A stretch of 60,000 bases of DNA from contig CM119371.1 in assembly GCA_051294905.1 (NCBI GenBank), positions 7,814,001 to 7,874,000 on the forward strand. Direction: 5' to 3'. Below are positions 2,233 to 56,200 of this stretch, piece after piece (position 1 is the first letter of the stretch; every line of letters starts with the position of its first letter). The notes below the pieces were generated by a model that was given only the letters and a program-made list of their open reading frames with translations, was not told the origin of the DNA and made no database searches. A program made the translations under genes and the position numbers. This stretch comes from Botryllus schlosseri (lineage: Eukaryota).

Positions 2233-2627
2233 ATCTACACGAATGTATTGCAAATTGGCACACTTGAGCCAAAACGACATATTTGTGAAGTCGTGAGCAA
2301 CCCACAGCATTGTGACAAGGTGTAATGAAATTATCACCATTGAAAAAATGCCAAATTATCTTTAAAGCGATGTAGAACCGGTGTTATATTCTTTTTGGTA
2401 GCATAAAAGATACAAATTCGAGGTTTCAGCAGCTTTCGTATTGCTGCGACCTCGTAAAATCAGTGATACTCGAATTCTCGGTTCAGTACCGAATTGCTCG
2501 AAGTGTAAGATTTTATCAGACCCTAATAACATGTAGTTGAATGTTACGTGTCATGTAACGAAATGGCAATGGTGAGCCGTGTGGGTGTGGGCATTAGGTG
2601 ATAATTTATTGATTTTCACTCCTGCAG

Positions 2628-19102: not shown

Positions 19103-19628
19103 TAGGGTTGTAATTTCTCGAGTCTATTTTGCAAATGCGAAAAATGACTCAAGTAGAGTCAATTTTTGTATGGACTCGACTTGTACTCGAGTCATTGTGC
19201 CTGACACAAACCAAGTCGTATGACTCGAAACTAGCATTGCCAAGACAGACAATTTATTGCAACTTCGAAGAATAGTGAAGTTACAACATTATTGGTATTT
19301 CTCCTATCAGTCCTGATACTTGGAAAATATGGCCAGAAACTGTTAGGAATGAGAAAAATTACTATAATACGAATGCGAGCCATTCTATATCAATTATCAC
19401 TCAAGCAGAGGTGAAAAAGTAAGTTGAACCGGATTGAACTGAGAACAGAGTAGTGAACATAATGACTTGTACTCGGACTCGAGTCAAAACACTGACCCGA
19501 ACTCGACCCTCTACTAGCTGACTTTGACTCCGACTTGACTCGGGGGTGAATTGAAAATGAATCGAGTCAAAGCTATAAAAGTGAGATTGACCTGTGACTC
19601 GGAATCTCGTTACTTGGTTACAACCCTG
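19103..19628. mobile_element. GACTC-rich hAT-type MITE
   Basis: TIRs TAGGGTTGTAA / TTACAACCCTG, TSD GCTTTCAG/GCTGTCAG; same family as 45035-45591 in opposite orientation. Confidence 0.8.
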
Positions 19629-20935: not shown

Positions 20936-21294
20936 GAACACGTCATGCATTTAAAACGAAAGAGTCGGCCTTCGCAGTTGGAAAAAGTCTTATAACAGTG
21001 GATCTAGACGAGTGTGTTTTCGATGATGTCGTTGTTTCAGCAATCCCGTTGACCTCGCATGTCGTGTTACGTGGCGGTATTCCAGAATCCACTCCGATCG
21101 ATGCGAAAGTCAGAAAGCGTCGGTTATCATTTCTCAGAGCAGTAGGCGGGTATGAGGCTTTCGATCGTCGGGGTCGCATTTTTTGCCTGGTTGGCACTCG
21201 CGATCTGAAAGATACCGGCGAAGATTCGATCTCAGCGGCGGGCGACATCGACCACGCGATAAGCTGGCTCAACGCAACCCCAGAAAGTGGCTGA
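20936..21294 (+). CDS. Possible terminal exon of the repeated-exon gene
   Basis: Pyrimidine tract plus AAG acceptor in phase 1 (compatible with the upstream exons), about 119 open codons of GC-richer sequence ending in TGA; no domain recognised. Confidence 0.35.
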
Positions 21295-24200
21295 TACCGT
21301 GTAAATCGCGCGGGTAACGAGCCGTTGTACAACAACACAATGTGCTCAGTTGTCTGTGTTGATTTGTGCTCGTATATACATTGTATATCTAGTGTGACAT
21401 ATAATGCCGACGTCAATTGTATCGAGTGTGAACATTTGCTTCGTGTATTCGTCAACAGGTAGTTTGAATTCGCCATCAACCATGTACCGGATATATTGAT
21501 GTTTTCAATAACAACGTGCTGATGTATTTGCGTGGTGTTCACTTTGGGGTTAGGCAGCATATGCGAGGTAAATTTCGACACTGCGATATTCTAGCCTCCA
21601 CTCAATTGCGAACAGGTCGTGTAATGGAACAGTCAGCTTCTAATTAGTGTTGCATAGCATCAAGTACTTCTGTAAAACGAAATGCTATCTTCTACTTGGC
21701 TGTCGTACTGGAAAATCGGGTTTTGGGAAAGTGCTTACCGCACGAAAACGCATTGCAACAGCTATACCTGACCATCCGTAAAATACAGACCCAAGAAGCA
21801 CTTCGCCCGGCCCCACGAAAACGATGATCTTGAGATCACTCATGGTGATAAACCAAACTTATGGGGGCTTGGCCCCCCAGATATCGCAACCGGAGGGATG
21901 TTTTCTTTAGTGCTTGTGAAAACGTTTATTGAACTTAGTGTATAGGCAGAGATGTTATGTAGGCCTACCCCAATCGCGCCATGCGCGAAAATTGTATATA
22001 TATAATTCATGACTGAATCGGTCAATAATATTATTAATTGCATATATATTGGTAAAACTAGAATTTCAGGTATAGCTTATTGAGGTGTCGTCTTGGAAAA
22101 TTTAGCGCACGTAATTAATAATTGAATGTATTCGGACGGGCCTTCTGGAATAATTGCTTCAGAATAATTGCTTCGTTGCATGTCATTATTTTGTACCATA
22201 CTGTCTGTTATATGGTGAATAGATATTGATGCCGCTCAGGCGTACTAAACTAAAAGACGCACACGACACCCAATTGGTATTTCTTCATTGGCAAATAACT
22301 CTCTCTGTCGGATGGCATCGTCCTGTGTAGTATCCAGAACAGCGAGATTTGGCGCCAGCCCTTAGGCGCCTATAGACCATTAAACATATATATCTGTATA
22401 TCGAGGTTTTCGGGCAACAAAGGGCATTCCTTTCCGGACAAGGTTTTCCTGCTGCTGAATATTTTAGCGCACTTTTCGAAGTCCCAAGTTAACCTAAACT
22501 TCATTATGGGATGGTGCGTCGTGGCGCTGTAATGGCGCCACCAAAGTGACTATTTCCATAAATCGTGCATATTTCTTGTGAAGGCCACCCAATAATCAAT
22601 ACATTTATTGACACTAAATCGTGCAATGCGTGGAAAATATTTGAAAAAATTTGGCTAACGTTCCAAAAAAAAAATACTGTATGATTTAATTCACGAAATA
22701 CTTTTGCATCCATTCAAGCTCGGCCACCTCAAACTGGGGTTTGATGGGTACGGCAGTTACGGTCCGGTACAAAATGAACGTTTTGAAACCGAATGATCGT
22801 GGAAACTGCGCGGTTTAACGAGTCAGCTCGTACTTGTCGCTCGCATGTGGTCAAATCAAACAGCTTGAACTTCAAGTCAAATCGAACATGTTTCCCAGAC
22901 CTAATGTTGCCTCATGAAGTTCTGAATCCGTTCAAAATTTGATGTTTCGTAAATTTTACCAATTGACTCGAGAAACCTACAACATATTGCATCTCAGTAC
23001 AATGTCAGAGGTGTGTATAGTTAGGTAGATTGTGTTTTTACAACTCAGAGAAAGCTTGGGGTGCCCGAAGGCTGGCAGATTAGAGTAAGTTAGTGAATTT
23101 TAAAGAACAATTGCATTAGATGTCGCTATTATGCATTACCACATTATGCTCGCAAAAACAAATTATGCTTTTGAAGGTCCGCCTACATGACAAACTTTAT
23201 TATTTCTCTAACTGCAACGACACTATTTAGTAGCATTTTAGAACATTTGGCTCAATTTCACGGTAGTCGCAGTCGGAGAAAAGTCCGACATCAAACGGTG
23301 TTAGAAGATATTTGCGACTCCGACTCCACCAAGAGAAAATCGAACTCCCAACTGCGACTCCACGGCCATGAACGAAACACTATGAATGCTTAACCTCGAA
23401 AACAATAGGATGAGACTTCAGTTTCGTATTGACCACTCACAATCTCAGTTTTCCCCCGATTCGGCTATTGATCTCTTCGCGTTTGCGTAGTTGTTCCATA
23501 AGCGGTGAGTTTGTCGTGGTACGATTCGATTCTGGCAGTAGAAATAGTGCTATATTTCTCGCTGGGTACGGTACGGTACGACATAAGATATCTAAGAATA
23601 ATTGTGAATGTATCTATGTCTATTTCTGTGTCTCTTAACCGTTTATCCGTCAACATAGTCAGCTTGATGCTTAGTGAGTTGCCGTTTCTCGATGACCTGC
23701 TGGAATGGTTCATAGAACGAATAAGATGCCGTTATCAATCGAGCGCGGATGATTTGCGATGGAATGTTTAACATATTTCTGCACGCAAAAGGCGTGTAAG
23801 AACGAAACGTTTGATCAGATGGTGATATCCATTATGGATGGTATAAGAACCAATTGATTTCACGCTTGTTTCCCGGTCCCGATACCGACCTAATTTGAAG
23901 GTTCGCGACCGCTGGTCATTGGTAACCTTGTTTGGCACCGATGTTTCCCCTATCGTGGTAACCAATACATTGCTGATACATCATAAGGCCGGCAAATTAT
24001 CCGTTAGCCTTGAAATTATTGGCAACACGACACTGACTTTACAAAACTAACCGGAGCTCCGCCGAATGCACACGATTGCAAATATGACCAGTATTTCACA
24101 GCGCTTATACCGTTCCGAGTAGCCTACCCAATGAGACAATGTATTCTTGCACTAAGTAGACTCATGATATGGGGATAATAGATTCCGTCCACTTTTAATT

Positions 24201-43013: not shown

Positions 43014-43120
43014 TTTGCGTCGGAATCGGTTCTTTACATTTTGTGTTTTCTTTATTAAAACCACTTTGTTTTACTTTGCCTGAATTCTACTGTTTGTATA
43101 TGATCGAAGGATTGTGAATT

Positions 43121-44500
43121 GTCCGGGATGTTGCTTAATGAACTTTGAAAATGGTACATAGGCGCGACTGGTAATCGCAATTTACGCGTATTGATAGGCC
43201 CACTTCAAAGTGATAGTTGGACATCGAGTCGGACCTAGAATTGTTCTAATTTACTTTTATATCAACGTTTATGATCATTGGAGTATATTAAAACCAGATT
43301 GGTACTCGGGAAACTGTCCGGAGTGTTGCTTAATGAACTTTGAAAATGGTACATAGCCGCGGCTGATAATCGCAATTTTCGCGTATTGATAGGCCCACTT
43401 CAAAGTGATAGTTGGACATCGTGTCGGACCTAGAATTGTTCTAATTTACTTTTATATCCACGTTTATGATCATTGGAGTATATTAAAACCAGATTGGTCC
43501 TCGGGAAACTGTCCGGGGTGTTGCTTAATGAACTTTGAAAATGGTACATAGGCGCGGCTGATAATCGCAATTTTCGCGTATTGATAGGCCCACTTCAAAG
43601 TGATAGTTGGACATCGTGTCGGACCTAGAATTGTTCTAATTTACTTTTATATCCACGTTTATGATCATTGGAGTATATTAAAACCAGATTGGTCCTCGGG
43701 AAACTGTCCGGGGTGTTGCTTAATGAACTTTGAAAATGGTACATAGGCGCGGCTGATAATCGCAATTTTCGCGTATTGATAGGCCCACTTCAAAGTGATA
43801 GTTGGACATCGTGTCGGACCTAGAATTGTTCTAATTTACTTTTATATCCACGTTTATGATCATTGGAGTATATTAAAACCAGATTGGTCCTCGGGAAACT
43901 GTCAGGGGTGTTGCTTAATGAACTTTGAAAATGGTACATAGGTGCGGCTGATAATCGCAATTTTCGCGTATTGATAGGCCCACTTTAAAGTGATAGTTGG
44001 ACATCGTGTCGGACCTAGAATTGTTCTAATTTACTTTTATATCCACGTTTATGATCATTGGAGTATATTAAAACCAGATTGGTTCTCGGGAAACTGTCCG
44101 GGGTGTTGCCTAATGAACTTTGAAAATGGTACATAGGCGCGGCTGATAATCGCAATTCACGCGTATTGATAGGCCAAATTCAAAGTGATAGTTGGACATC
44201 GTGTCGGACCTAGAATTGTTCTAATTTACTTTTATATCCACGTTTATGATCATTGGAGTATATTAAAACCAGATTGGTCCTCGGGAAACTGTCAGGGGTG
44301 TTGTTTAATGAACTTTGAAAATGGTACATAGGCGCGGCTGGTAATCGCAATTCACGCGTATTGATAGGCCAAATTCAAAGTGATAGTTGGACATCGTGTC
44401 GGACCTAGAATTGTTCTAATTTACTTTTATATCCATGTTAATGATCATTGGAGTATATTAAAACCAGATTGGTCCTCGGGAAACTGTCCGGGGTATTGCT
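43121..44500. repeat. Tandem array, 7 near-identical copies of a 195-bp unit
   Basis: Unit start GTC(C/A)GG at 43121, 43316, 43511, 43706, 43901, 44096, 44291 and a partial at 44486; only scattered substitutions, no indels. Confidence 0.97.
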
Positions 44501-45034
44501 AAATATGTTGACGCGCTACTCATCAGCGCAATTCATACATGACTTTTTTTATCGCTGTGGATGTGATTTCTGTTGACTTAAAACGACAGTGCTAGTATAT
44601 TCAGCTATATCTTAGTCGAGAAACTACTTATAATAGTCCTACTATTCTAGATTTATCACATTTTGTATTTCATGTTCATGGTGACTCATTTTTTATTTCC
44701 GTTGATATGACAATCGTGCTACGATGATAGCAGTATTTCATAGGTTGTCTTTGTCAAAGTTGCAAAGTATATGGCTTGTTGCTGTATTAAGCCGTGGATT
44801 GGATGGTAAGTATTGATGTATTTATTGTTCCTGTCTTCGTTGTAATATATCCGCCGAATCTGCAATGCGTCACTGGGTATAGTCGAACCTGAAGCAACTT
44901 AGTCGTATTCAGTCGGATACCGGTATATAGCGGGAACTGCCAAACGGCTGCAAATAGTGATCAAAGTTTACTGCGTATCCATTTGTATGTAGTTGTAGAT
45001 CATGTTGAAGTTGGTAATGCGTTAGTAGTCCTAG

Positions 45035-45591
45035 CAGGGTTGTAACCAAGTCACAAGGCTCCGAGTCACAAGTCAATCTCACTCTTATATTTCGACTCGA
45101 GTCAAGTCGAGTCATTTTCAATTCCCACCGAGTCAAGTCCGAGTCCAAGTCAGCGAACAGAGGATCGAGTCCGAGTCCAAGTCATTGTGTTGACTGCTCA
45201 GTTTCCATTTAAAGTCTTCCTAAACCCACTTTTTTAACTCTGTTTGGTGATATTGAATGGTTCGCATTTATAATATATCAATTTGCCTCACTTTTAGCAG
45301 TTTCTGGTCGCATTTTCAAGCACCAGTACCAACAAACGAAATCCCAATAGTGTGTTGGCTTCGAAATTACAATGAAATGTCGGTCTTCGCCGTCTGAATC
45401 TCGAGTCAATGACTTGCTTCGAGTCCTGCACAATGACTCGAGTCCAAGTCGAGTCAATTCACAGATTGACTCGAGTCTAGTCGAGTCATTTCCGTATTTT
45501 GAGAAAATGACTCGAGTCGAGTCGAGTCATCCAAAAATCGTGACTCGAGTCTGACTCGAGTCGAGTCATTACTCGAGTCATTACAACCCTG
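45035..45591. mobile_element. GACTC-rich hAT-type MITE inserted in the cassette
   Basis: TIRs CAGGGTTGTAA / TTACAACCCTG, TSD AGTCCTAG/AGTTCTAG. Confidence 0.85.
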
Positions 45592-45989
45592 AGTTCTAGA
45601 CGTTTCACAAGCTTCCTTGTTTTTATTTTGTACCGTACTGGGCAATGTTAAAGTGAAGTATTTATCCAACTGGAGGAATATTCATCCTGAGGTGATTGAA
45701 GAAACTTCAGCTTTAAAAAATATGGGATATCATGCTATACTCGAGTCTTTGATTCAAGATTTGAAAACCCTAGAAACATAAGGAACTGATGTAAATTTGT
45801 ATTTTACAGATATATATACTCAAGTTGTGGTACTTGTGAAATAAGTGCCCGGAGGTCTAGGCGGCAATAGTTGTTGCATCATAAAATGGGAGTGTTGTAG
45901 GATAGTAAGTGTTTTACATGTACATTGAAATGAGGGTGAAAAAATCACCAGGTCTGGTAAGGAACAAGTGAAAAAAATGACCCTGCCAT

Positions 45990-47078
45990 ATGAATAACAC
46001 GGGTTTAAAATATGAGAGAATCAGTAAATATGAGGTATCAAGAAAAAGAAGGTTTGACCCGCAAAGGACGGTAGAGAGTGGATGGACGCCACATACTGTC
46101 TTGTTTACTTGCGCAGATACGTGGGGAGGAACCTACAATGTGTTGAGTTTGATCGAATCGGGTGCGCTTCTCAACACACAAGACTGTGTGCTATTTCTGA
46201 GAAATCACGGGTTGTTGGTGCGAAGGATGAAATGCAAGCGATGTAGAAATATAATGAAAGAGGAAAATACTTCGACAGGCTACGATGGGTTTAGGTGGCG
46301 ATGCAACCCCTGTGATACTACGGCGACTATACGGAAACACTCGATATTCGCGGGAAGCAAGGTAGAACTTCCCAAATTATTAATATTGTTCTACTTTTGG
46401 GCCCATGACGCGTTGCAAACTCAAATTGCGCATGAAGCAGAGATTAGCCAGCGTTCAACGGTCACTTGGTGTGGCCGTTTGCGAAAGCTTTGTTCGGCCG
46501 AATTTCACAGGAAGAAACGACGTTTAGGAAGTGAAAAAGGCTGTGTGATCATTGATGAAACGCATTTAGCTAAGCGCCGGGCTGCCTCGGGTAAAGGACC
46601 AGCTGTTAAAGCCATTTGGGGGTTCGGAGGCATAGATAAAGCTACCGGAAAAATGTTCATAGAAATAACTTCCGACAGGACTGCTGAAGTATTCCGAAAA
46701 CTCATAGTAGAAAATGTGGCAGAAGGGTCCACAATTCTAACCGATGCCTACCCTTCCTACAGGGGCATAGAGAGCTGGGGGAAGGGTTATACACACGGTG
46801 TAGTGGACCACTCCCGTTGGTTTAAGGACCCTCGGACAGCTTTTTGTACTAATGAAATCGAAGGGGCCTGGGGACAGCTCAAATATCATTTACATAGGTC
46901 TCGTGGTTTAGCACGTCATCTTTTGGCCGATTACGTAGGGGAGTTTTTGTGGAAACGTCAACATCAAAAGACTGACCGATTCTTGGCACTCCTGCGTACC
47001 ATACACAATGACCCACAGTATAATTTTGATAAATTTGATGGGTCTCCTGTATTACCACCATTGGAAACCCCGCTATAG
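45990..47078 (+). CDS. Merlin / IS1595(IS1016)-family DDE transposase
   Basis: 362-aa open frame with Zn ribbon CKRC..WRCNPC, IRKHSIFAGSK, catalytic VIIDET, WGFGGIDK, ILTDAYPSY, HGVVDHS, TNEIEGAWGQLK and YVGEFLWK. The true start is uncertain (possible splice acceptor at 46116). Confidence 0.93.
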   Translation: MNNTGLKYERISKYEVSRKRRFDPQRTVESGWTPHTVLFTCADTWGGTYNVLSLIESGALLNTQDCVLFLRNHGLLVRRMKCKRCRNIMKEENTSTGYDGFRWRCNPCDTTATIRKHSIFAGSKVELPKLLILFYFWAHDALQTQIAHEAEISQRSTVTWCGRLRKLCSAEFHRKKRRLGSEKGCVIIDETHLAKRRAASGKGPAVKAIWGFGGIDKATGKMFIEITSDRTAEVFRKLIVENVAEGSTILTDAYPSYRGIESWGKGYTHGVVDHSRWFKDPRTAFCTNEIEGAWGQLKYHLHRSRGLARHLLADYVGEFLWKRQHQKTDRFLALLRTIHNDPQYNFDKFDGSPVLPPLETPL

Positions 47079-47163
47079 GGTTCTAGGACGGAAATGACGC
47101 TATCTGTTATTTTGTGTTTTTACAGACGTTAGTCTAGGGCTAGTGCGCGATTACATTTAATTT

Positions 47164-47307
47164 ATGACGTGGAAAGAATCACCACCACTATCCGTACCAT
47201 GGACCTCCTTCCTCATTCTCTGTCTATCCTTGTTGGTATCATTTGTACATCTGATTTGTTGCTGCATACGGCGGCGCAAGGCATGCGCGGACTCGCAGAT
47301 CCTGTAA
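47164..47307 (+). CDS. 47-aa single-TM micro-protein overlapping the glycoprotein start
   Basis: First ATG after the acceptor at 47125: MTWKESPPLSVPWTSFLILCLSLLVSFVHLICCCIRRRKACADSQIL*; hydrophobic helix, then CCC, then RRRK. Confidence 0.55.
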   Translation: MTWKESPPLSVPWTSFLILCLSLLVSFVHLICCCIRRRKACADSQIL

Positions 47308-49715
47308 CAAGTAGAGCACGATCTTTCACTCAGGGGACACTAGGTGAACTACGGGGACCCCTGCCTGATGAATGGGTCACTTTAAATGATACACAATGGG
47401 AGGACTATCACTTGATGAGCATATTCAATAAAACTGCGGAGCGACATGTATATAGACGGCCTGAGTTGTTTTACAGTAAGTCATTTGGTTACGTAGTGGC
47501 TGAGCGACTTTCGTTACAACAAATGGCGTTTCCACATGGAAGATATTGGTCAAGCGTACAAGAATTTGAACGCACTTGTCTATGTCAGCGGCGCCTGGGT
47601 CAAATCACGCCCAATATTTCCTATGATGTTCTTAAACAAACGAACATGTTCATACGTCCAATAGGATTTTATAGGATTCAGTGGTTCTGGAATGGGGACC
47701 AATACTTGTTTCATGACCTTGGCAGGAATTACTCCATGTTTGCTCTTACCAAATTTAAATTGATTATGATCCGACTATTCGAAAGTTACTCAGCTGTTGA
47801 AGCTTCATGCCGTCAAGAGCAAATGGGAGATCAGGACAAAGAAAAAATGAGTGAATTGAATAAGTATAATGCCAGTAGCAATAGTTTTACACAATGCTGG
47901 CATCTAGTACATAAAAACTACGCCTCCCACAGCACCTTTTGGCAAAAATTTCACTCCTGGAGGGAAGAAGGGATCATAATAGGAATCTGTACAAGGTGTA
48001 ATTTTAGAGGAGTGATTTCTGCCCTGGAACCAAATAAGGCAGATATAATCATCCAAGAAATAGTAATGACTACAGTAAGTGACTGGCAGTATGTGCGCAA
48101 TAAGTTGATACCATGCCGGGCCCAGGGGGGATGGATTAATCAGGACTGGTTTGCGCACTTATGGCCCAAGAATGCTGTAATAGCCCATTCGTGCAACTTC
48201 TGGCCAGGAATGAATACCACTCTATGGGGTGATCTACCAACGACAAATTTCCCTCCGAGAGTAAAATGGATACAACCGTCTTTTCCAAATGTGGATCATA
48301 GTGTGTATGCTAATCGTGGCAATCAGGGCATGAAGTGGAATAATCTTTTTGATGGTGAGCCGACTAGGTTTAAGGCATCTACATCAACATGGGTACCTTT
48401 TCCCAGGCCAATGTGGAAATTCTTCCCCTCTCTTACTGCGTCGGACATAGCATGTAAAAATAGAATATCACGTAACCAGGATTTGTGTCGCGACCCTGTG
48501 GGCGGACCCATTTTGAAGGCAGCATTTTGGGACCATGTTCATTTTGATCCGGAGCTAAACCGACCACGTTTCCCAGGAGGCCCAATAGAAATTAAGGGAG
48601 AGATAGTATCGAGTGAGAGTATCAAACGGGGTACGCGTGGAAGACGTAAAAGGTTTCTGTCCGGATTATTATGTCTAATATTCGGCCTGGTGTCAGCAGT
48701 AGCCGTCGTGGCGTCAGTTTCATCCCAATTGCATGAAGAAACGGTAGATCTGACCAGACAAATCAATGATAGAATGACGCAAGCTACGCAGAGGTCCACT
48801 GCACTAGGAAGGAAGATTAACGAGCTCTCTCGGCTCCAGATAGCTCAACAACAAAAATTGGACCAAACAGTGGCCACTATGGAAGTTAGGTCATCACTAG
48901 TAAATAAACGCCTAGTATTATTGGAAAAATACATAGAGAGGAATCGACAGATGATAGTAACACAAGCAACAGCCTCTTTGACCTCTTTTCAAAACTATAA
49001 AGAAATGAGTGATGCCGAACTAGCCATCGATCGATTGGTTTTAAATGAATTGGCTAATTTAACTGGCAAGTTAATATTTGACTCCAGCAAGGTATATCTC
49101 ACGAAAATCCGACAAGGAACGTTACGTATAAAAGAACATGCTCAACAATTCACAGCCTATAGAGACGCTTACATCAATGAGACGAATGACATCGGAGTGG
49201 AACTACGTGCTAATCGTATAGGTCTAGATCAAGCCCAACAAAATGTAGATTTCGGGTTGCAAGTTTGGAGAGAAGATCTGAATAAGAGTGTGTACATGAA
49301 CATTTCTGATTGGCGATATGAGAATATTACAGTGAAGCCTTTCGAATTTGTGGGAGGAAAAGAATTTATGAAGAACTTTGGCCAAACGATAGAAGAGATG
49401 GCACATGCTTCCGGAAGCTTGATAAAATCAGTTGGAGATAGTGCAGGAGATCTACTACAAGACGGATTAGGTGCGGTCGGAGGAATATTCAGTAAGGGAA
49501 TGAGCGGAATTTTTTCCGGCCTGGGGTCTGTTTTAATTCCAGTAATTTTGATATTGGGGGCTGGGATCATCTTGTTTTGTTGCTGTCGTTATAGCAGTCT
49601 TTGCTGTCCTAAGTTAAAACCTAAAGTACAAAGGCGAAACGCGAACACTCAGTTGACAATGTACATATCGTCGGTGCCTACCTACCCGAAAACAGCCAAA
49701 TCAACAAGGATGTAG
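47199..49715 (+). CDS. Viral-type class I fusion glycoprotein-like protein (838 aa from the ATG)
   Basis: ACCATGG start, signal-like N-terminus, many NxS/T sequons, multibasic RGRRKR then hydrophobic FLSGLLCLIFGLVSAVAVVASVS, long heptad region, Gly-rich amphipathic membrane-proximal segment, TM VLIPVILILGAGIILF, tail CCCRYSSLCCPK. Intronless. Confidence 0.8.
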   Translation: MDLLPHSLSILVGIICTSDLLLHTAAQGMRGLADPVTSRARSFTQGTLGELRGPLPDEWVTLNDTQWEDYHLMSIFNKTAERHVYRRPELFYSKSFGYVVAERLSLQQMAFPHGRYWSSVQEFERTCLCQRRLGQITPNISYDVLKQTNMFIRPIGFYRIQWFWNGDQYLFHDLGRNYSMFALTKFKLIMIRLFESYSAVEASCRQEQMGDQDKEKMSELNKYNASSNSFTQCWHLVHKNYASHSTFWQKFHSWREEGIIIGICTRCNFRGVISALEPNKADIIIQEIVMTTVSDWQYVRNKLIPCRAQGGWINQDWFAHLWPKNAVIAHSCNFWPGMNTTLWGDLPTTNFPPRVKWIQPSFPNVDHSVYANRGNQGMKWNNLFDGEPTRFKASTSTWVPFPRPMWKFFPSLTASDIACKNRISRNQDLCRDPVGGPILKAAFWDHVHFDPELNRPRFPGGPIEIKGEIVSSESIKRGTRGRRKRFLSGLLCLIFGLVSAVAVVASVSSQLHEETVDLTRQINDRMTQATQRSTALGRKINELSRLQIAQQQKLDQTVATMEVRSSLVNKRLVLLEKYIERNRQMIVTQATASLTSFQNYKEMSDAELAIDRLVLNELANLTGKLIFDSSKVYLTKIRQGTLRIKEHAQQFTAYRDAYINETNDIGVELRANRIGLDQAQQNVDFGLQVWREDLNKSVYMNISDWRYENITVKPFEFVGGKEFMKNFGQTIEEMAHASGSLIKSVGDSAGDLLQDGLGAVGGIFSKGMSGIFSGLGSVLIPVILILGAGIILFCCCRYSSLCCPKLKPKVQRRNANTQLTMYISSVPTYPKTAKSTRM

Positions 49716-49801
49716 TACATACATATGTACTAAAAGGGTTTTGCTTTTATAAAATTTAACTTTTCATAAGTTCACAGATATACTAACTAATTTATAATGA
49801 T

Positions 49802-52800
49802 ATGAACTGTTACCAGAAAATATGGATTGTGCTGACAGTATCTTTAATACTGCACCGAGGATATCTGCAAACTCATGGCGAATTATTGCCCCTATCTGCT
49901 ATGAGTGTAGTGCCCAGAATCACATTTAATCTTACAGGATGGACAACGTTCCGGTATCAAGGTCTCAGATACCTCCGCCTTAATCGGCTATTCAAATTAA
50001 ATGAGAGTTGGCCAATAGGTGAAACGGAAAATAATTTTCCAATACACGAAGAAACACCCGAATTTGGTCCAACACGAGCTGGCAAAGATCAATTGTATAA
50101 GTTATTTGCACCCTCAAGGACTGAGAGGCGGTATTGGAACAATGTAAGGCAATACGAAAGAGAATGCGGATGCAATCGAAAACTATCACGAGTATCTCCC
50201 GATATTATGTTATCGGCCTTGACCAGAACCATAACGTATCGACGGAAAAATAATTTCGGATTAATACATACATGGAAATATGTTGTAGGGCGGGAATCAA
50301 GTTTTCCAATAGTCGTTCCTAGAAATCTCCGTCGAGTAATCTCTCCAAATACAACCCCAGAAGTTACTATACACCAGCTGTTGACCGTTTACAAGTTATC
50401 AGTGATGAACCACTTGGCACAATATGCAACAGTAACAGCAAGGTGTCGACAACATTCGGAAGGAATCGAGGGGTGGAAGGTCAACAAAGGCGAATTTAGT
50501 GTATGTATATTCGAAAATACTAGCGGAATGCAATGTATAGGATGTGCATTTTATACAGACAATCGGGCAGTAAATACACTGTCCAGGGAATTTGTGTTCA
50601 TGGAAATAGATAACAGCATTAGAGGACTAGGAACAAGAATGCAAGAAACCTATTCCTACAGTCAATGGCCAGCAGGAGTCAAACTACCCAGATTACATCA
50701 CGACATCGTGTGGTTAAAGGCTCGAAATGAAACCGGGCCCAGAGAGAGGCCAGCAAACTTTGATGGTCATACTTGGTTTAGATTGAGGATTTACGCCCTT
50801 CGCGAACATCTAAATAATGAAACTCAACGGATAATGGGAAGGAAAAATTTTCCGACTATGTTGCTAGGCAGCATAGAATGTGAACGCAAGAAAAATAGGA
50901 AAGTTTGCCGTAATGCAATAGGAAGTTTGAAGACGGCTTTGGCCTTTAAGGAAGTGTTATATGACCCATACACAAACCAATCCGTGTATGCAGATCATAG
51001 CAATGGTCGATTAAAAATTGCATCTCCAAGACCTACAGGTCAGGAACCTCCACTCGAGGCATGGCCCAATAATCTATCGTATTGTAAACAACCCGGGAGA
51101 TTAGGCAATTTTGTTCTGACTGCATCACTTCAAAACAATGGACAAAACACAAAAAATATGGATTACTATCTAGCCCGCCTAGGAATGTTTTATGTAGAAA
51201 TAACGAAAAGACGTTTACGCCAGTTGTCGCTTCCCATATACAAAAAGCGAAAAAATCTAGAGAGGCTGGAAAGACCAATAACAATAGCTGACATGGCTTC
51301 TTTAAGTCAGGAACTAGGATCAATATTGACGCAACGGAAACTGAGTAGGGTAAACGAGGGGCTATTAAGCTACATGTCGACGAAAAAATTGAGAGAGGCG
51401 CCACTTCAAGACGATATGCGGCTATTTCGACCTAGCGTTGCCTACAAAGCTATAATATGTGCGGGTATATTGGTATATACACCTTATGCCTATAAGGAGA
51501 ATATCAAAATGAATACGAACTCCGCACGGCCATCAAGTTTTGCAAAAGTAATAACATCAAGGCCTATCAATCATGAAGATACCACTCGAATGGCGGTCCC
51601 CAATAGCGAGTCTAGCACAGTGTATAATTTCACTCCTATTAATATAAGTCAACAACCAACTATGAGAACGGGGGAAACCATCACAAACACTGAGGGGAGT
51701 GTAAGAATGACGAATCAATACGATACTAACCGCTATAACTACGATTATATAGAAGATTATGACGAAGGATTTAGCTATGACGGATATGACAATAATACTA
51801 GTTTTCAAGACTCTGGAAATTACTACTATGACTACTATGACGAAGACGGAGAATATGAGGGTTCACTTAAACGTAGGCCCCTACCCGTAGCTGATACTAC
51901 GGATTCCACAAATATTATTGAAACTACAATGGTGTTACCGATGATTGAAGCTCCAACATCGACTAAAAATACTCAATATGCAATCAAGTTAACAACGGAT
52001 ACAACAATTCCAACGCCAGGAACGTCTGCATATACGTCAGGTAGTATTACGTCCCCACGAACAACTACTGCGATCACACCATATACCAGAGGGTTGGCAT
52101 CGGCCATTATCAATTCCGGAACGACTTCATCGACACCGCTTCCAGCCATATTAACAACTGTGCATTCCTCGCGAGAAGATAACACCAGCCCAAGATCAAC
52201 TGCATCTATTTCTACATTCTTAGCTACAGTGAAAACTATGAGTGAACAAGAAAGACGTGGGACGAGCCCCACAACTATATTCACAACTTTGAAACTGTCT
52301 ACATCTATATCAACAGAGATGGACGTTCAGAAAAACATTGGTATTGCTACGACAGGACTCACCTTTTCCAAAAGTAAGTTAACAACGCTTACAACAATGG
52401 AGAGAACGGCAAACGCACAGTTACAATGGAATACCATGGCTTATCAAGGATCCACAAAAAACGGTGAAATGTTAGGCTCCATACCCGTGCCAATAAAGAA
52501 AACACCCCAGATTACGCAAATACCTGAGTCTTATATACAATTAAGTCATCACACAAGTCAACTCATGGACACAACATCGCCTATAGCGCATTTCAAAATG
52601 TTGCTGGATACAACACCAGTAGCAACGACGGTTGAAACGCACCAATATTTCGTCACCAGCAAGTCCCGCTCTAATACAGAACCAGATAATTCAAGCAGAG
52701 AGCAAGATATACAGGTAAGAACTAAATCAACATCAATGCTTTCATCAGGGGATTATCAGAGCGAACCCACATCAGTAAGTAAAAATGATGTGATCAGAAG

Positions 52801-53209
52801 TTGGAAGAGTACTTCCAATAGTGCACTTTCTTCAATTACGCCCGCTGTCAAAGAAGAAGGAAAAACTACACTCAGTATACCGCATACCTTACCTACGGCC
52901 AAATATGACAGACTGGACCGAATTACATTTGACTTCTATGGACAATTGCACAAACTACAAAAAATGGAACAAGGATATGCAGAAGGTAGAATTATTGTTG
53001 ATATTAACAATAGAAAGGATTTAGAAGAATCACTTAACAATCATGCCCTGATTTTTGCGGTTAGCGTCACAGCAATGTTAGGATGCATGTATTTATGTTA
53101 TGCGAAATGTGGGAGAGTCGCTTCAAAAAATTATCTTAGGGAGGTTATTCGACGGAATAACCGAAAAACGTATATTACAGCAGTAACGTTGCACGAAAAA
53201 CAGAGATAG
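49802..53209 (+). CDS. Type I membrane glycoprotein with paralogous head domain and mucin-like stalk (1135 aa)
   Basis: Signal peptide, Cys-containing N-terminal domain alignable by eye to the upstream glycoprotein, Tyr/Asp-rich segment, long Thr/Ser-rich region, TM LIFAVSVTAMLGCMYLCYA, basic tail. Intronless. Confidence 0.8.
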   Translation: MNCYQKIWIVLTVSLILHRGYLQTHGELLPLSAMSVVPRITFNLTGWTTFRYQGLRYLRLNRLFKLNESWPIGETENNFPIHEETPEFGPTRAGKDQLYKLFAPSRTERRYWNNVRQYERECGCNRKLSRVSPDIMLSALTRTITYRRKNNFGLIHTWKYVVGRESSFPIVVPRNLRRVISPNTTPEVTIHQLLTVYKLSVMNHLAQYATVTARCRQHSEGIEGWKVNKGEFSVCIFENTSGMQCIGCAFYTDNRAVNTLSREFVFMEIDNSIRGLGTRMQETYSYSQWPAGVKLPRLHHDIVWLKARNETGPRERPANFDGHTWFRLRIYALREHLNNETQRIMGRKNFPTMLLGSIECERKKNRKVCRNAIGSLKTALAFKEVLYDPYTNQSVYADHSNGRLKIASPRPTGQEPPLEAWPNNLSYCKQPGRLGNFVLTASLQNNGQNTKNMDYYLARLGMFYVEITKRRLRQLSLPIYKKRKNLERLERPITIADMASLSQELGSILTQRKLSRVNEGLLSYMSTKKLREAPLQDDMRLFRPSVAYKAIICAGILVYTPYAYKENIKMNTNSARPSSFAKVITSRPINHEDTTRMAVPNSESSTVYNFTPINISQQPTMRTGETITNTEGSVRMTNQYDTNRYNYDYIEDYDEGFSYDGYDNNTSFQDSGNYYYDYYDEDGEYEGSLKRRPLPVADTTDSTNIIETTMVLPMIEAPTSTKNTQYAIKLTTDTTIPTPGTSAYTSGSITSPRTTTAITPYTRGLASAIINSGTTSSTPLPAILTTVHSSREDNTSPRSTASISTFLATVKTMSEQERRGTSPTTIFTTLKLSTSISTEMDVQKNIGIATTGLTFSKSKLTTLTTMERTANAQLQWNTMAYQGSTKNGEMLGSIPVPIKKTPQITQIPESYIQLSHHTSQLMDTTSPIAHFKMLLDTTPVATTVETHQYFVTSKSRSNTEPDNSSREQDIQVRTKSTSMLSSGDYQSEPTSVSKNDVIRSWKSTSNSALSSITPAVKEEGKTTLSIPHTLPTAKYDRLDRITFDFYGQLHKLQKMEQGYAEGRIIVDINNRKDLEESLNNHALIFAVSVTAMLGCMYLCYAKCGRVASKNYLREVIRRNNRKTYITAVTLHEKQR

Positions 53210-56200
53210 GTATTGCAAAATAATTACTGAATTATTGTAATAATAGAAGTGAGTGTTGTTACGTGTTGTGTTCGGTCCGTTTGCGCGGTTTAGAGTCCAT
53301 GTGAAATTTACCAAAACCTAAATTTAATTTTATTGAGATAACAATGTGTAAAATTTATGCTGTGTTTGCCTATGGAGGCCTAAAAGTGTGTGGGGTTTGA
53401 GAATGTACGAGGCAAATTCGCAGTATTAACGATGCTTATGCAACGAATATCATTGCGAAATACATAATTGCGAAATTTTTGGATGGTATTGCTAAGCCAA
53501 CTCAGGACTGAGTAATACCTCAGTTTGTAAAACATGGAAGCGGATGGCGTTATTTTTGTAAAATATAGCCATAAATGATGGTGGGAAAGGAAACGTTGCA
53601 GTGGTAAATTGACTCATAGGAAATAATTGACTACAGCAAAATGGCGAAATTTGACTGCTATTGGGGGTTTAATCACGCTGTAGTACGAATGGTAGCGACA
53701 AAAATTTGCTAGATGAATGTTCGGATGTGCGTCAGTCCCTACTTTATGGAGATAGGGAATTGCTCCTGGTGAGGGGGGCGGATGTATGTGTGTCAACGAC
53801 CTTCCGCTCAAAACTGGATATAACTCGGGGCGCAGGATCAAAAAATTCAGTTCACTCTACACAGAGCTGAACGGGCATGAAGAATCTAGAAAGTTAACAG
53901 AGTTGACTAAGATTATGACAAGTTAGTCAGATCTTATAGACAATGACTGTTGTACTTGATAGATAATAATTAGTTTATGCCATGCGGATGGATAAATGCA
54001 AGATGTCATCTTAAGGGCTGTCGCGTTATAATTTTGTTAAATTTAACAGATTGATGTTGGATATTGATCTGATATAGCCACAGCATTTGGGGTCGAGCAG
54101 TGTGGCTAATCCAGGATTGGGGTACACTGCCGATAACTGGGCTATTAATCTCTTGATTGTTTTCGGTCAAATACCATGGAATGGTGGGGCATATAAGCAA
54201 CAATATAAAAATATTATTAAAGGCGTCATAGTAATATAAATGTCTGAACGGCTGACATCATCACATCGTTGGAGCGTACCACTGCGGTATTCAGTAGCCA
54301 GTACCTTTAAGTGGCCTTAATAACAGGGATATAAGGACCCACGATGTAACTAAAAATGGCCAATTGTTGACATAAAGACTTGCTTAGATAGCGGAGTACC
54401 AAGCTACTACCATCTGATCTAATACTATTCCCTATGAGACGTGAACAGTTAGTTGTCCCTATATTTATGACCAAGTTACGGCGTTCCAAGTCAACTTGAG
54501 TCATTCTCATTTTGTCATCGAGTCTGCCTGAATCCGAGTAATTCTACGCGGGTTCGCGTCCAAATCACAATAGACTTACAAATTTCAGTCATGAATCATC
54601 TAAGGATCCGGATTTATCTTCATAAAATAGAATTGTGGCAAAATATTGAATCTTTACCGCATGGTAGTGTTTGCAATTGATGTGATAGTTAATTTTGATA
54701 AATAATCTCAGACTCTCGGAGCAATTTGAGAAGGAATTTTAACTTCTTAACATAAAAAGATATATGTCTGTCACTTACAAATTGTCAAATACTTGAAATT
54801 CTAAAATGTCTTCGCGGGCCGCACAGAATAATCTGGCGGGCCGCGTGTTTGAGATCTCTGAGTAAACCAAAACACTTGCAGCGACATAAATGGACGCTCG
54901 TAACCGCAAGTACTATAGACCGCAAATCGTAATTTTGCACGACCATATGTGATGTCACAATAAATCAGTGTACGTACATGGTACCTTTAGATTACTAGTA
55001 GGCATATACAATACACACCCAACGGGCACGATAACGCACTTCAAATCAATGCATGCGCTCAATGTAGGCCTACCGCGTCAAAATACTGATGTGCCGTCTT
55101 CCGCAATGCACTCATTACTACCAAGATAAATAGTAATTTATAATGATACATATATTCAAGTCTGACTGAAGCAAGAACAATAACATTGTGGGACGTTATC
55201 GACTTGACATTCTAGTTTAAACAAATCGAATAAAATCAAAATTGATGCTGCTGTGAACCTGATTTAACGTTGCGCAGTTGAAGCATATTTCGATCAACGT
55301 TTTCAACAATATTGGTGTTTGTAATTAAATCGGCGCCTGGTAAAATTTCGATAGTACAAAAAAGAACTGATGCTCACTTTTCTATAAAGGGGAGAGAGAA
55401 AATTAACGGGACATTCATAACTATGATTATATTCACTCGCTGCGCGGATATCTCTACTATACAAAATAAATTCTAAACACTCGATCACTCATAATGTCGC
55501 CTGTGTCTAAAAAAAAAAAGTATGGCTGATTCCTGCTAAAGACGTTTGCAAATACAATCATTTGCGGCAAATAAGGACGGTAGATTTGGAATTTTAAAGT
55601 TTATAGAATCAGCCTGCGGTCGACGCGTCTTGCTACCGTAGCTGTTCCTCACATACACTAAATATAACAATATTGGTTAGCATAAGTAACTACTGTAAAA
55701 GTGGTAATTTCAAGCGGCAGTGGCACAATCACCAACCTATTGAGTATCGAAGCTGCCTCTCATTGTATACCGCGCACTGCACAAGGTTGACAATAACATT
55801 AAGACTACAAGAAAATGCCAATAATTTTATAGTGTGTGCTAATGTACATAATTCCATGGTCTCTCGAGTCACTGGCCTCAAGCGATTTGGGTTGGCCTGA
55901 TTTGACCAATCATTCAATGACAATGCGCTTTGTTGGGCATATATTTGACATAGCGTCACGAATATATGGATCGCGGGCTAAGGGAAAAAAATTACGGACA
56001 ATGCTAGCGTAAACTATAGCGTTCTATTAAATCCTTTATTTCGGTTTGATAAAACAAACTAAGAACGGTGCGTTTACTAAAATGGATTATTAATTTACTT
56101 ATATGTGAACCATACACCGCATTATCTGTGTACCTATTTAACGATGTATATTCATGGGTCAGATGCCAGCGACCACTCGATCTGTATTGCAAAAACCTGA

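Follow-up and report, generated by a model that had tools for sequence, protein, structure and literature searches.

Class I viral fusion glycoproteins of the SU-TM type (retroviral Env, coronavirus S1/S2, influenza HA1/HA2 and filovirus GP1/GP2) share an order of elements that runs from a signal peptide and receptor-binding subunit through a polybasic site, fusion peptide, HR1 and membrane-proximal helix to a TM helix and a Cys-rich tail. Gamma-type retroviral and filovirus-type TM subunits have a CX6CC-type Cys loop between two helices. Paramyxovirus F, baculovirus F and errantivirus F-type ENV consist of a small N-terminal F2 and a large F1 with Cys-bearing head domains. Env-carrying LTR retrotransposons are animal mobile elements that have gag and pol together with a furin-cleaved glycoprotein bearing a hydrophobic fusion peptide, and they exist as multiple similar copies with intact frames. 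MFUS-1, the Maverick/Polinton fusogen of nematodes, is described as gB-like (class III) with transcription reported as undetected; the elements carry capsid, polymerase and integrase, and their transfer between cells and species is proposed in the same report (bioRxiv 10.1101/2022.07.12.499685). Teratorn of teleosts is described as a fusion between a piggyBac transposon and a herpesvirus, about 180 kb long and containing a whole herpesvirus genome (PMC5822658, PMC10175614). Merlin elements are described as single-gene transposons with TIRs of 24-462 bp beginning GG, 8-9-bp TSDs and no zinc-finger domain (PMC8101967).

The window analyzed here is a stretch of 60 kb that contains four ORFs of at least 150 aa. 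Translation shows that three of them are adjacent, intron-less and on the same strand, encoding a transposase (ORF1), a fusogen-like protein (ORF2) and a paralogue of the latter (ORF3). The first-pass annotation described ORF2 and overlooked the flanking transposase and paralogous glycoprotein genes, which change the nature of the locus. The module is laid out as follows.

45990..47078, + strand: ORF1, 362 aa, intact IS1595/ISXO2-like (Merlin-type) DDE transposase with an N-terminal CxxC...CxxC zinc-ribbon-like motif (Pfam, alignment)
47079..47198, + strand: ORF1-ORF2 spacer, 120 nt, with ACAGAC at 47122
47199..49715, + strand: ORF2, 838 aa, predicted class I-like fusion glycoprotein precursor, ATG to stop
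49716..49801, + strand: ORF2-ORF3 spacer, 86 nt, AT-rich, with TATAAA at 49748 and ACAGAT at 49774
49802..53209, + strand: ORF3, 1135 aa, paralogue of the ORF2 N-terminal subunit, with no cleavage site or fusion subunit, a mucin-like stalk and a TM anchor
53210..54408, no strand: non-coding stretch 3' of ORF3, probably within the repeated unit (depth in run X1)

Copy evidence was taken from the contigs of public DNA run X1. The summed contig depth is 444-802 over 53210..54408, close to the 271-1079 of ORF3, and rises to about 6500 from 54409 onward. A search for TIRs and TSDs around the module gave no convincing pair, and the element is therefore not delimited; the unit size is under about 10 kb. 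The best inverted-repeat pair in the single copy examined is 24 nt long at 83% (45794-45817 / 54760-54783) with flanks that do not match, and the TIR of a neighboring MITE is absent from the module flanks. No further Pfam domain was detected in the 112 other ORFs of at least 75 aa in the window, where searches also returned 0 Rfam matches and 0 tRNAs. The CpG observed/expected ratio is about 1 both within and outside the ORFs, and it is therefore uninformative on age.

ORF1 belongs with the IS1595/Merlin transposases. It matches Pfam PF12762 (DDE_Tnp_IS1595) with E = 5.8e-11 and 43.1 bits against a cutoff of 27; the NCBIfam IS1595 model gives E = 1.5e-18, but its 67.5 bits are below the cutoff of 75. 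The catalytic D189, D252 and E291 are invariant across eight aligned sequences, bacterial IS1595 included, and position 298 is K in 7/8 and R in 1/8 of them. The CxxC...CxxC motif aligns with the zinc ribbons of bacterial IS1595, and the closest ESM-atlas clusters (score 0.97) are those of eukaryotic ISXO2-like transposases. The complete DDE triad within a DDE_Tnp_IS1595 domain is shared with Merlin elements, whereas the three same-strand ORFs and the CxxC...CxxC motif depart from the single-gene element as described (PMC8101967), and no TIR or TSD was found. A 195-bp tandem repeat array lies upstream of the module; subterminal tandem repeats are known in some Merlin families according to the same account (PMC8101967).

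The probability of 838 codons staying open, calculated from the window base composition, is 8e-25. All strings that the first-pass annotation quoted for an intact ORF at 47199-49715 are present in the 838-aa translation, and the following parts were distinguished.

47199..47279, + strand: signal-peptide-like N-terminus, about aa 1-27, with a putative cleavage position (hydrophobic window aa 3-26, maximum Kyte-Doolittle [KD] 1.72)
47280..48635, + strand: N-terminal (receptor-binding-like) subunit with conserved C127, C129, C204, C267, C419 and C430 (family alignment)
48636..48653, + strand: predicted polybasic proprotein-convertase (furin-type) site RGRRKR, aa 480-485 (motif conserved in relatives)
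48654..48722, + strand: hydrophobic fusion-peptide-like segment of 23 residues, aa 486-508, beginning at F486
48717..49013, + strand: long helical 3-4(-4) hydrophobic repeat (HR1-like), aa 507-605, with conserved N523, R525, N541 and N582
49071..49274, + strand: second helical region, aa 625-692 (period 3.50, 0/1000 shuffles)
49281..49331, + strand: putatively glycosylated linker with sequons N695, N701 and N709
49341..49523, + strand: Gly/Ala/Ser-rich amphipathic pre-TM helix, aa 715-775 (period 3.70 over aa 715-772, 0/1000 shuffles)
49524..49592, + strand: transmembrane helix, about aa 776-798 (maximum KD 2.94, hydrophobic window aa 767-803)
49578..49715, + strand: juxtamembrane Cys cluster (aa 794-796 and 802-803), probably palmitoylated, and short cytoplasmic tail

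The order of these parts, in which a signal peptide and a large N-terminal subunit are followed by the polybasic site, the hydrophobic peptide, a long helical repeat and a second helical region, and then by the TM helix and Cys-rich tail, is real and conserved in the family; the first-pass annotation had proposed it from the cleavage site onward. ORF2 is predicted to be a type I membrane glycoprotein with a build like that of class I viral fusion proteins. An N-terminal hydrophobic stretch, the TM helix at about aa 776-798 and conserved sequons between them indicate type I topology, and the predicted priming site stands directly before the hydrophobic peptide as in class I proteins. KD values peak at 2.61 in the hydrophobic window aa 484-512 and average 2.49 over the 22 residues after RGRRKR (0.43-2.84 for the same stretch in relatives). 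Twenty family members cover the site; 18 of them have a strict R-x-K/R-R motif directly before the hydrophobic stretch, and the other two end in KR. The N-terminal Cys columns are conserved in 6/6 (C127), 6/6 (C129), 8/10 (C204), 11/13 (C267), 16/16 (C419) and 16/16 (C430) sequences. Two or more Cys occur at or just past the end of the TM helix in at least seven relatives (P0001, P0005, P0006, P0011, P0013, P0019 and P0034). The ORF2 features exceed chance because relatives retain them.

Helical structure in the predicted fusion subunit was assessed by periodicity. The single-sequence heptad score of ORF2 has a maximum of 0.70, which does not exceed that of shuffles (mean 0.58, maximum 0.88). 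Family-averaged hydrophobicity over aa 505-600 has a period of 3.55, matched by 8/1000 shuffles, and a periodicity of about 3.5 appears in just one of four control windows from the N-terminal half of the family. The hydrophobic core with 3-4 spacing spans aa 507-605 of the family, and its conserved polar positions are retained in 21/22 (N523), 18/22 (R525), 19/22 (N541) and 17/22 (N582) sequences. Prolines are absent from the 250 residues of aa 464-713 versus 28 in aa 1-463 (binomial 1.7e-7). ORF2 has no Cys in aa 509-775, where the family likewise lacks a conserved Cys column; the fusion-subunit ectodomain is Cys-free in 15 of 24 aligned rows and has 0-4 Pro per ~205 aa. The pre-TM region contains 10 Gly in aa 735-775, and G750, G756 and G767 are invariant in five sequences. 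ORF2 has 11 N-x-S/T sequons, and the family is enriched for them (6.3 observed versus 2.7 in shuffles). Sequon N620 is conserved in 19/23 relatives, and relatives have a sequon within two columns of N695, N701 and N709 in 8/20, 17/18 and 12/17 cases, respectively. The conservation and enrichment of sequons place aa 509-775 outside the cell, and aa 486-508 is therefore unlikely to be a stable TM span.

Database searches returned a small, unannotated family. Among 1.84 billion proteins there are 38 representatives at E <= 1e-3, 28 at E <= 1e-10 and 10 at E <= 1e-30, some of them on contigs up to 2.2 Mb. The sole named relatives come from the ascidian Styela clava and are labeled 'uncharacterized'. 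Pfam, NCBIfam, PHROGs and PDB sequences gave no significant match to the family, so the earlier suggestion of a 'possibly new fusogen family' stands; PHROGs gave nothing for ORF3 either. Pattern matches were obtained in IMG/VR, JGI metagenomes and prokaryote genomes, yet tblastn gave no relative there, and phage and plasmid tblastn gave no match. The family profile produced 91 weak matches to PDB sequences, none significant (best E = 0.12). Among the best 60 of these, 52 are spike/E2 (16) or influenza HA (36), and in the rows checked they align just past the fusion peptide. A profile of the N-terminal subunit had 0 matches to PDB sequences at E <= 10. ESM-atlas leads place coronavirus S2 clusters nearest (0.91, 195/256 shared features), along with a paramyxovirus-F-containing cluster (0.89) and HA (0.89). 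Full-text literature searching found no paper on such an element or protein family. At the sequence level the ORF2 family is an orphan with a clean predicted class I layout.

ORF2 has the same order of elements as the SU-TM glycoproteins, but it has no significant sequence match to them and its pre-TM region is Gly/Ala/Ser-rich rather than aromatic. Its fusion-subunit ectodomain lacks conserved Cys, and a CX6CC or other Cys loop is therefore absent. The small-F2/large-F1 layout does not fit ORF2: the predicted cleavage is at 485/838 aa, after a large N-terminal subunit, and the post-cleavage ectodomain of about 290 aa, Cys-free in 15/24 rows, is helical by periodicity instead of a head-plus-stalk with beta domains. 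Fusion_gly and Baculo_F were not matched by ORF2, and neither is among the 25 families listed of 62 (E <= 5, 24 members). Pfam CoV_S2 was likewise unmatched by ORF2 and is not among the families listed, and alignments of HR1 to spike S2 reached E values of only 0.12-1.4. The first-pass annotation had likened the membrane-proximal region to herpesvirus gB and the Cys tail to that of coronaviruses. Both are analogies that gained no support: no gB family or chain is among the rows listed from the Pfam and PDB sequence searches, the best 60 of the 91 weak PDB matches included, and gB (class III) has internal fusion loops, unlike the N-terminal peptide behind a cleavage site predicted for ORF2.

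ORF3 is related to the ORF2 N-terminal subunit by BLASTP (2e-09), and hhalign with the family profile pairs ORF2 aa 134-467 with ORF3 aa 129-408 at a probability of 97.9 and E = 6.3e-13. The R-x-K/R-R site is absent from its translation, in which the following parts were distinguished.

51719..51871, + strand: Tyr/Asp/Glu-rich acidic stretch, about aa 640-690 (translation)
51899..52891, + strand: Ser/Thr/Pro-rich mucin-like region, about aa 700-1030 (S+T+P fraction 0.30-0.52 per 50 aa)
53039..53107, + strand: TM helix, aa 1080-1102 (maximum KD 1.94)

The genome carries multiple copies of the module, some intact and others decayed. The summed contig depth in X1 is 271-2018 across the ORFs, individual sites are variant in as many as 25 distinct contigs, and a contig about 91% identical crosses the ORF2-ORF3 junction. 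Deletions of 1-2 nt occur in some X1 copies, for example at 48125, 49510, 46777, 46944 and 52861; those at 48125 account for depths of 799.8 and 575.4 out of 1988.6. A stop at ORF1 codon 31 is present in 232/278 of the X1 depth. The many near-identical and decayed copies fit the recent activity proposed in the first-pass annotation. Matching contig sizes suggest that the gene neighborhood also recurs in relatives 25-55% identical. P0044 (55% identical to ORF1) and P0002 (35-37% to ORF2) are each on one Logan contig, both of 7067 nt, which points to transposase-fusogen adjacency. P0003 (F-type, 32%) and P0030 (ORF3-type, 25%) are each on one Logan contig, both of 5305 nt, consistent with fusogen-paralogue adjacency. 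ORF3 and P0030 form no clade in a neighbor-joining tree (0/100 bootstraps), and a conserved two-glycoprotein system is therefore not established.

The preferred reading, with a probability of roughly 0.6, is that ORF2 encodes a fusogen of class I type and that its carrier is a transposase-bearing mobile element. The predicted path starts with a signal peptide that would direct the protein into the secretory pathway. A proprotein convertase may then cut after RGRRKR (aa 485), a site conserved in sequence, and free the hydrophobic N-terminal fusion peptide. The fusion subunit would be a Cys-free, Pro-free, heavily glycosylated and helical ectodomain anchored by the C-terminal TM helix and a palmitoylatable Cys cluster. 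By analogy with class I proteins, a trigger would extend the long HR1-like helix and insert the peptide in the target membrane, and the membrane-proximal helices would then refold back onto the HR1-like helix. ORF3 is a candidate attachment protein on a mucin-like stalk. A cut-and-paste element carrying its own virus-style entry glycoproteins could use them for cell-to-cell spread (soma to germ line) or for spread between individuals. The full form of this scheme, a capsid-less IS1595/Merlin-type animal transposon with a two-part entry apparatus (a new class I-type fusogen and a duplication-derived attachment protein) that uses vesicle or cell fusion to reach other cells or individuals, is put forward tentatively, with odds well below even.

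An unlikely alternative is that the glycoprotein genes of an unknown enveloped virus were endogenized, then captured by a Merlin-type transposon or inserted next to one, and amplified passively with no role in spread. Capsid and packaging genes are absent from the window by Pfam scan of its ORFs, in line with a fossil of this kind. The variants between copies look near-neutral, and the copies appear mostly to decay neutrally: the 24 best-supported in-ORF variant sites comprise 9 synonymous, 14 non-synonymous and 1 stop against a random expectation of 22% synonymous, a sample too small to call selection. In RNA run X24 (6% read) the mean depth is 0 for both ORF2 and ORF3 and does not exceed 1.14 for ORF1, and RNA run X21 gave no reads. 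The family is also mostly fragments, with 3/38 full-length-looking representatives. Passive carriage is countered by the gene neighborhoods that seem to recur at 25-55% identity, since this requires long co-inheritance with open frames. The cleavage site, peptide, sequons and helical core are kept across the family, and the completed IMG/VR scans produced no relative.

It is improbable that ORF2 is instead a furin-processed surface glycoprotein with a non-fusogenic function (for example adhesion, decoy or superinfection-exclusion) in which the hydrophobic peptide is a buried core element. Homology to proven fusogens was not found in Pfam or PDB sequences, and the Gly-rich pre-TM region is not a canonical heptad HR2; both observations suit such a protein. 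Against it, the polybasic site directly abuts a conserved Ala/Gly/Leu-rich hydrophobic stretch, behind which a helical repeat extends for about 100 residues; this is the layout that defines class I, and the language-model features toward spike, F and HA clusters are a lead in the same direction.

A host gene family, either domesticated and syncytin-like or composed of native cell-fusion or adhesion genes beside an unrelated transposase, is very improbable. The 838-codon frame is intact and annotation treats the ascidian relatives as ordinary loci with isoforms, but these entries are fragments of 157-242 aa. The genes are intron-less, tightly packed with 86-120-nt spacers and multi-copy with frameshifted variants, and their linkage to a transposase seems to recur in relatives. 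The sampled 6% of the RNA run has no reads on the ORF2 gene, and the host co-option raised in the first-pass annotation found no support. An LTR retroelement env was ruled out because no RT, IN or LTR was found in the window, and an endogenous RNA virus with an F-G gene order was ruled out by the type I topology of ORF3, its paralogy to ORF2, and the transposase and many copies of the module.

The proposed analogues of the module are the env-carrying Ty3/gypsy elements and the fusogen-carrying Mavericks. It would resemble env-carrying LTR retrotransposons in being an animal mobile element with a predicted furin-cleaved glycoprotein, hydrophobic fusion peptide, multiple similar copies and intact frames, but it has a DDE transposase and no RT. 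It would share with the Mavericks, as reported, a viral-type fusogen on a DNA-level element, whereas it has only a transposase and two glycoproteins in place of their larger gene set, and a class I-like layout. As in Teratorn, a cut-and-paste transposase and viral envelope genes would be combined in one element, although the module is far smaller and has no other recognizable viral gene.

For horizontal gene transfer in animals, the best candidate vectors are mobile elements with a fusogen of their own; those known so far are LTR retroelements (F- or gB-type env) and Mavericks (gB-like fusogen). If the two-part apparatus is real, the module would be a third independent 'enveloped' mobile element, and a DDE transposon that pairs a class I-like fusogen with a paralogous, mucin-bearing partner would extend the list to the simplest DNA transposons. 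Such an element would also pose the puzzle of DNA transport in the absence of a capsid. The Cys-free fusion subunit with its long Gly-rich amphipathic pre-TM helix may serve as a test case for a minimal class I machine.

The frame at 47199-49715 (ORF2) had been described in the first-pass annotation as a class I fusogen-like protein, and all strings quoted there are present in the ORF2 translation, which confirms the observation. The chance of 838 open codons, computed from the window composition, is 8e-25. Only 4 ORFs of at least 150 aa occur in the window, and three of them adjoin each other at the ORF2 locus. Features of these three same-strand frames, with ORF2 taken from the ORF listing and its polybasic site from the translation, are as follows.

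45990-47078, + strand: ORF1, 362 aa, IS1595/ISXO2-like DDE transposase
47199-49715, + strand: ORF2, 838 aa, class I-like candidate fusogen
48636-48653, + strand: RGRRKR polybasic site, aa 480-485 of ORF2
49802-53209, + strand: ORF3, 1135 aa, paralogue of the ORF2 N-terminal subunit
51719-51871, + strand: Tyr/Asp/Glu-rich acidic stretch of ORF3, aa ~640-690, separating the paralogous domain from the mucin-like region

The RGRRKR site is directly followed by a hydrophobic stretch (window aa 484-512, maximum Kyte-Doolittle 2.61). A second hydrophobic stretch lies over the TM (aa 767-803, maximum 2.94), with cysteines at aa 794-796 and 802-803. ORF2 has 11 N-x-S/T sequons. Prolines are absent from aa 464-713 compared to 28 in aa 1-463 (P = 1.7e-7). 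The single-sequence heptad score of ORF2 is not above shuffles, so the evidence for helical repeats rests on the family.

Among 1.84 billion representative proteins searched, 38 are related to ORF2 at E<=1e-3; 28 of these pass <=1e-10 and 10 pass <=1e-30. A word-based search of 5.8 billion clusters returned one. Most of the relatives checked for origin derive from Logan or ENA assemblies, with contig sizes of 0.8 kb to 2.2 Mb. Names are attached only to entries from the ascidian Styela clava, 'uncharacterized protein LOC120333782' (two isoforms) and 'LOC120335360'; these entries cover 157-242 aa of the helical core (28% identity to ORF2 aa 518-688, E 3e-21). Conservation was read from a 24-sequence alignment. 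A strict R-x-K/R-R immediately precedes the hydrophobic stretch in 18/20 sequences that cover the site, and the remaining 2 end in KR. Family-averaged hydrophobicity has a helical period of 3.55 at aa 505-600 (matched by 8/1000 shuffles), 3.50 at aa 625-692 (0/1000) and 3.70 at aa 715-772 (0/1000). Of four control windows placed in the N-terminal half, three have no periodicity and one (aa 350-445) was matched by 9/1000 shuffles. Core positions from aa 507 to 605 follow a 3-4(-4) spacing, and the helical core conserves N523 (21/22), R525 (18/22), N541 (19/22) and N582 (17/22). The ectodomain after the cleavage site is without any conserved Cys column and has no Cys at all in 15/24 alignment rows; the N-terminal subunit has conserved cysteines, including C419 and C430 (16/16 each), a pair that lies shortly upstream of the site.

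Sequons N620 (19/23), N701 (17/18) and N709 (12/17) are kept in relatives, and sequons are enriched over composition shuffles (6.3 versus 2.7 in 15 sequences). Their conservation and enrichment place aa 509-775 outside the cell, and thus the hydrophobic aa 486-508 would not form a stable membrane span. This is the behavior expected of a buried fusion peptide. At the sequence level, ORF2 is an intact, conserved gene for a predicted type I glycoprotein with a class I-type order of features.

Searches of known families gave no assignment for ORF2. Pfam returned only chance-level rows (best E 0.042), and across 24 family members at E<=5 no Pfam family was matched by more than 3 members among the 25 listed of 62. 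There was no match in NCBIfam or PHROGs, and none of significance for ORF2 alone in PDB sequences (best E 2.6). The profile of the 24-sequence alignment gave 91 PDB rows at E<=10, none significant (best E 0.12). Among the 60 listed of these 91, 16 are coronavirus spike/E2, 36 are influenza HA, 7 are unrelated proteins and 1 is another envelope protein matched at the TM. In the spike/E2 and HA rows that were checked, the aligned part of the profile directly follows the fusion peptide; PDB redundancy inflates the spike and HA counts, making them a lead and not a test. The nearest ESM atlas clusters are coronavirus S2 (0.91; 27/30 listed matches), together with HA (0.89) and a cluster in which 18% of members carry paramyxovirus Fusion_gly (0.89), at a low recognition value of 1522. 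A profile of the N-terminal subunit had 0 PDB matches at E<=10. By its predicted features, the ORF2 protein has the layout of a class I fusogen and stands outside every described family.

ORF1 matches Pfam PF12762 above the cutoff (E 5.8e-11) and NCBIfam IS1595 with E 1.5e-18, but below the cutoff. Alignment with 5 close relatives and 2 bacterial IS1595 transposases shows D189, D252 and E291 to be invariant and position 298 to be K or R; by comparison with the IS1595 motif, we take these residues to be the catalytic set. A CxxC...CxxC motif lines up with the zinc ribbon of bacterial IS1595, and the nearest ESM atlas clusters are eukaryotic (Cnidaria, Arthropoda; 0.97). At 46080 (codon 31) T replaces G, converting GGA to TGA, in 232/278 of the depth (13 contigs) in sequencing run X1, and the sole contig of run X15 at this position also reads T. 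The N-termini of ORF1 relatives differ before residue 45 or so, and the real transposase start may be further downstream.

ORF3 matches ORF2 by BLASTP (2e-09) and the family profile by hhalign (probability 97.9, E 6.3e-13). The hhalign match pairs ORF2 aa 134-467 with ORF3 aa 129-408 and ends just before the cleavage site; the ORF3 translation has no R-x-K/R-R site. ORF3 continues into a Ser/Thr/Pro-rich region (~aa 700-1030, fraction 0.30-0.52 per 50 aa) and a C-terminal TM. Its Tyr/Asp/Glu stretch is reminiscent of tyrosine-sulfation-type acidic patches. A 722-aa protein from another assembly, P0030, has the same build as ORF3 and lacks the acidic stretch. When 9 N-terminal subunits were compared over 366 columns in a neighbor-joining tree, ORF3 and P0030 grouped in 0/100 bootstraps, and a single ancient duplication is therefore not established.

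The three genes are separated by spacers of 120 nt (ORF1-ORF2) and 86 nt (ORF2-ORF3). The motif ACAGA[TC] occurs once upstream of each ATG, at 45806, 47122 and 49774 (184, 77 and 28 nt away), follows T-rich sequence at 45806 and 47122, and is absent from the 791 nt after ORF3. Together with the 86-120-nt spacers, the motif might mark splice or trans-splice acceptors, or gene-start signals, common to the three genes. The same genes appear to be linked in relatives. P0044 (55% identity to ORF1) and P0002 (35-37% to ORF2) each lie on one Logan contig of exactly 7067 nt, and P0003 (F-type, 32%) and P0030 (ORF3-type, 25%) each lie on one contig of exactly 5305 nt; the gene lengths are compatible with these contigs, and adjacency was inferred from the equal contig sizes on record rather than from the relatives' DNA. 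Two further pairs, P0016/P0019 (4788 nt) and P0018/P0011 (13173 nt), probably represent fragments of a single gene or of neighbors. This points indirectly to co-inheritance of transposase, fusogen and paralogue over a long time.

DNA contigs of X1, which carries the species label of the window and may be the same sample, were mapped on 44500-55500 at >=90% likeness. Summed contig depths, which are not copy numbers, were 956-2018 for ORF1, 542-1750 for ORF2, 271-1079 for ORF3 and 444-802 downstream of ORF3 to 54408. Up to 25 distinct X1 contigs carry a variant at one site. Frame-breaking 1- and 2-nt deletions at 48125 account for 799.8 and 575.4 of 1988.6 X1 depth, and 1-nt frame-breaking deletions also occur at 49510, 46777, 46944 and 52861. 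The depths and the multiple variant and frame-broken contigs indicate that the module is repeated, some of its copies being intact and others decayed. Two diverged contigs extend past gene ends: one of 230 nt from X15 (20 differences) covers the ORF2 end and ORF3 start, and one of 437 nt (16 differences) covers the ORF1 end and 60 nt of spacer. The 24 best-supported ORF variants (9 synonymous, 14 non-synonymous, 1 stop) look like neutral decay of copies and carry little information on the active lineage. In RNA run X24, which shares the species label and of which ~6% was read, mean depth was 0 for both ORF2 and ORF3 and <=1.14 for ORF1; run X21 had no reads on the module.

None of the 112 other window ORFs of >=75 aa matches Pfam at E<=1e-3, so there is no RT, integrase, capsid or polymerase nearby. 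The sole other ORF of at least 150 aa (20943-21560, minus strand, 205 aa) belongs to no Pfam or NCBIfam family. The best candidate pair for inverted ends of the element is only 24 nt at 83%, with unmatched flanks. About 1.4 kb upstream of ORF1, a 195-bp unit forms a tandem array (43117-44586, 7.1 copies, 97% matches); the array might be part of the element, since subterminal tandem repeats are reported in some Merlin families (PMC8101967). A 565-bp MITE-like insert at 45031-45595 is full of GACTCGAGTC palindromes, starts with GGGTTGTAAC and ends with the reverse complement of GGGTTGTAAC. Its summed X1 depth is 417,000-572,000 versus ~1,000 for the ORFs, and one X15 contig lacks the insert, with 45030 running directly into 45596. 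Further copies lie at 8771-9189 and 19117-19628, and depth jumps tenfold where a related fragment lies, near 54483-54506. A degenerate direct repeat of ~1.5-2.1 kb (2586-12000, up to 6 copies, 61-80% identity) holds ORFs with no Pfam match. CpG observed/expected is ~1.0 across the 60 kb (G+C 37-44%), slightly lower in ORF2 (0.78) and 0.41 at 45596-45989. The window has no match to tRNA or Rfam families.

ORF2 belongs to a three-gene module that is present in multiple copies and whose DDE transposase looks intact. A proprotein convertase would cleave the ORF2 protein, which would trimerize, refold as a hairpin and fuse membranes; ORF3 would be its attachment partner, and the pair may serve cell-to-cell or horizontal spread of the transposon. 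Our confidence that the ORF2 protein is a working fusogen is moderate, and it is higher for the class I-type layout and the mobile-element context. Teratorn, reportedly a piggyBac-herpesvirus fusion, is a close concept. So are the F-type and gB-type ENV in Ty3/gypsy errantiviruses across Metazoa (PMC13524379) and MFUS-1, the gB-like fusogen of Mavericks in nematodes (bioRxiv 10.1101/2022.07.12.499685). Merlin elements, as PMC8101967 describes them, are single-gene, have TIRs starting GG and 8-9-bp TSDs and have no zinc finger; compared to these, the ORF1-ORF3 module differs in gene content and in its zinc-ribbon-like motif. Full-text searches of main articles turned up no account of the ORF2 protein family or of any DDE transposon that carries a class I-like fusogen. 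Mobile elements with captured fusogens or fusogens of their own are known; here the glycoprotein family is a sequence orphan.
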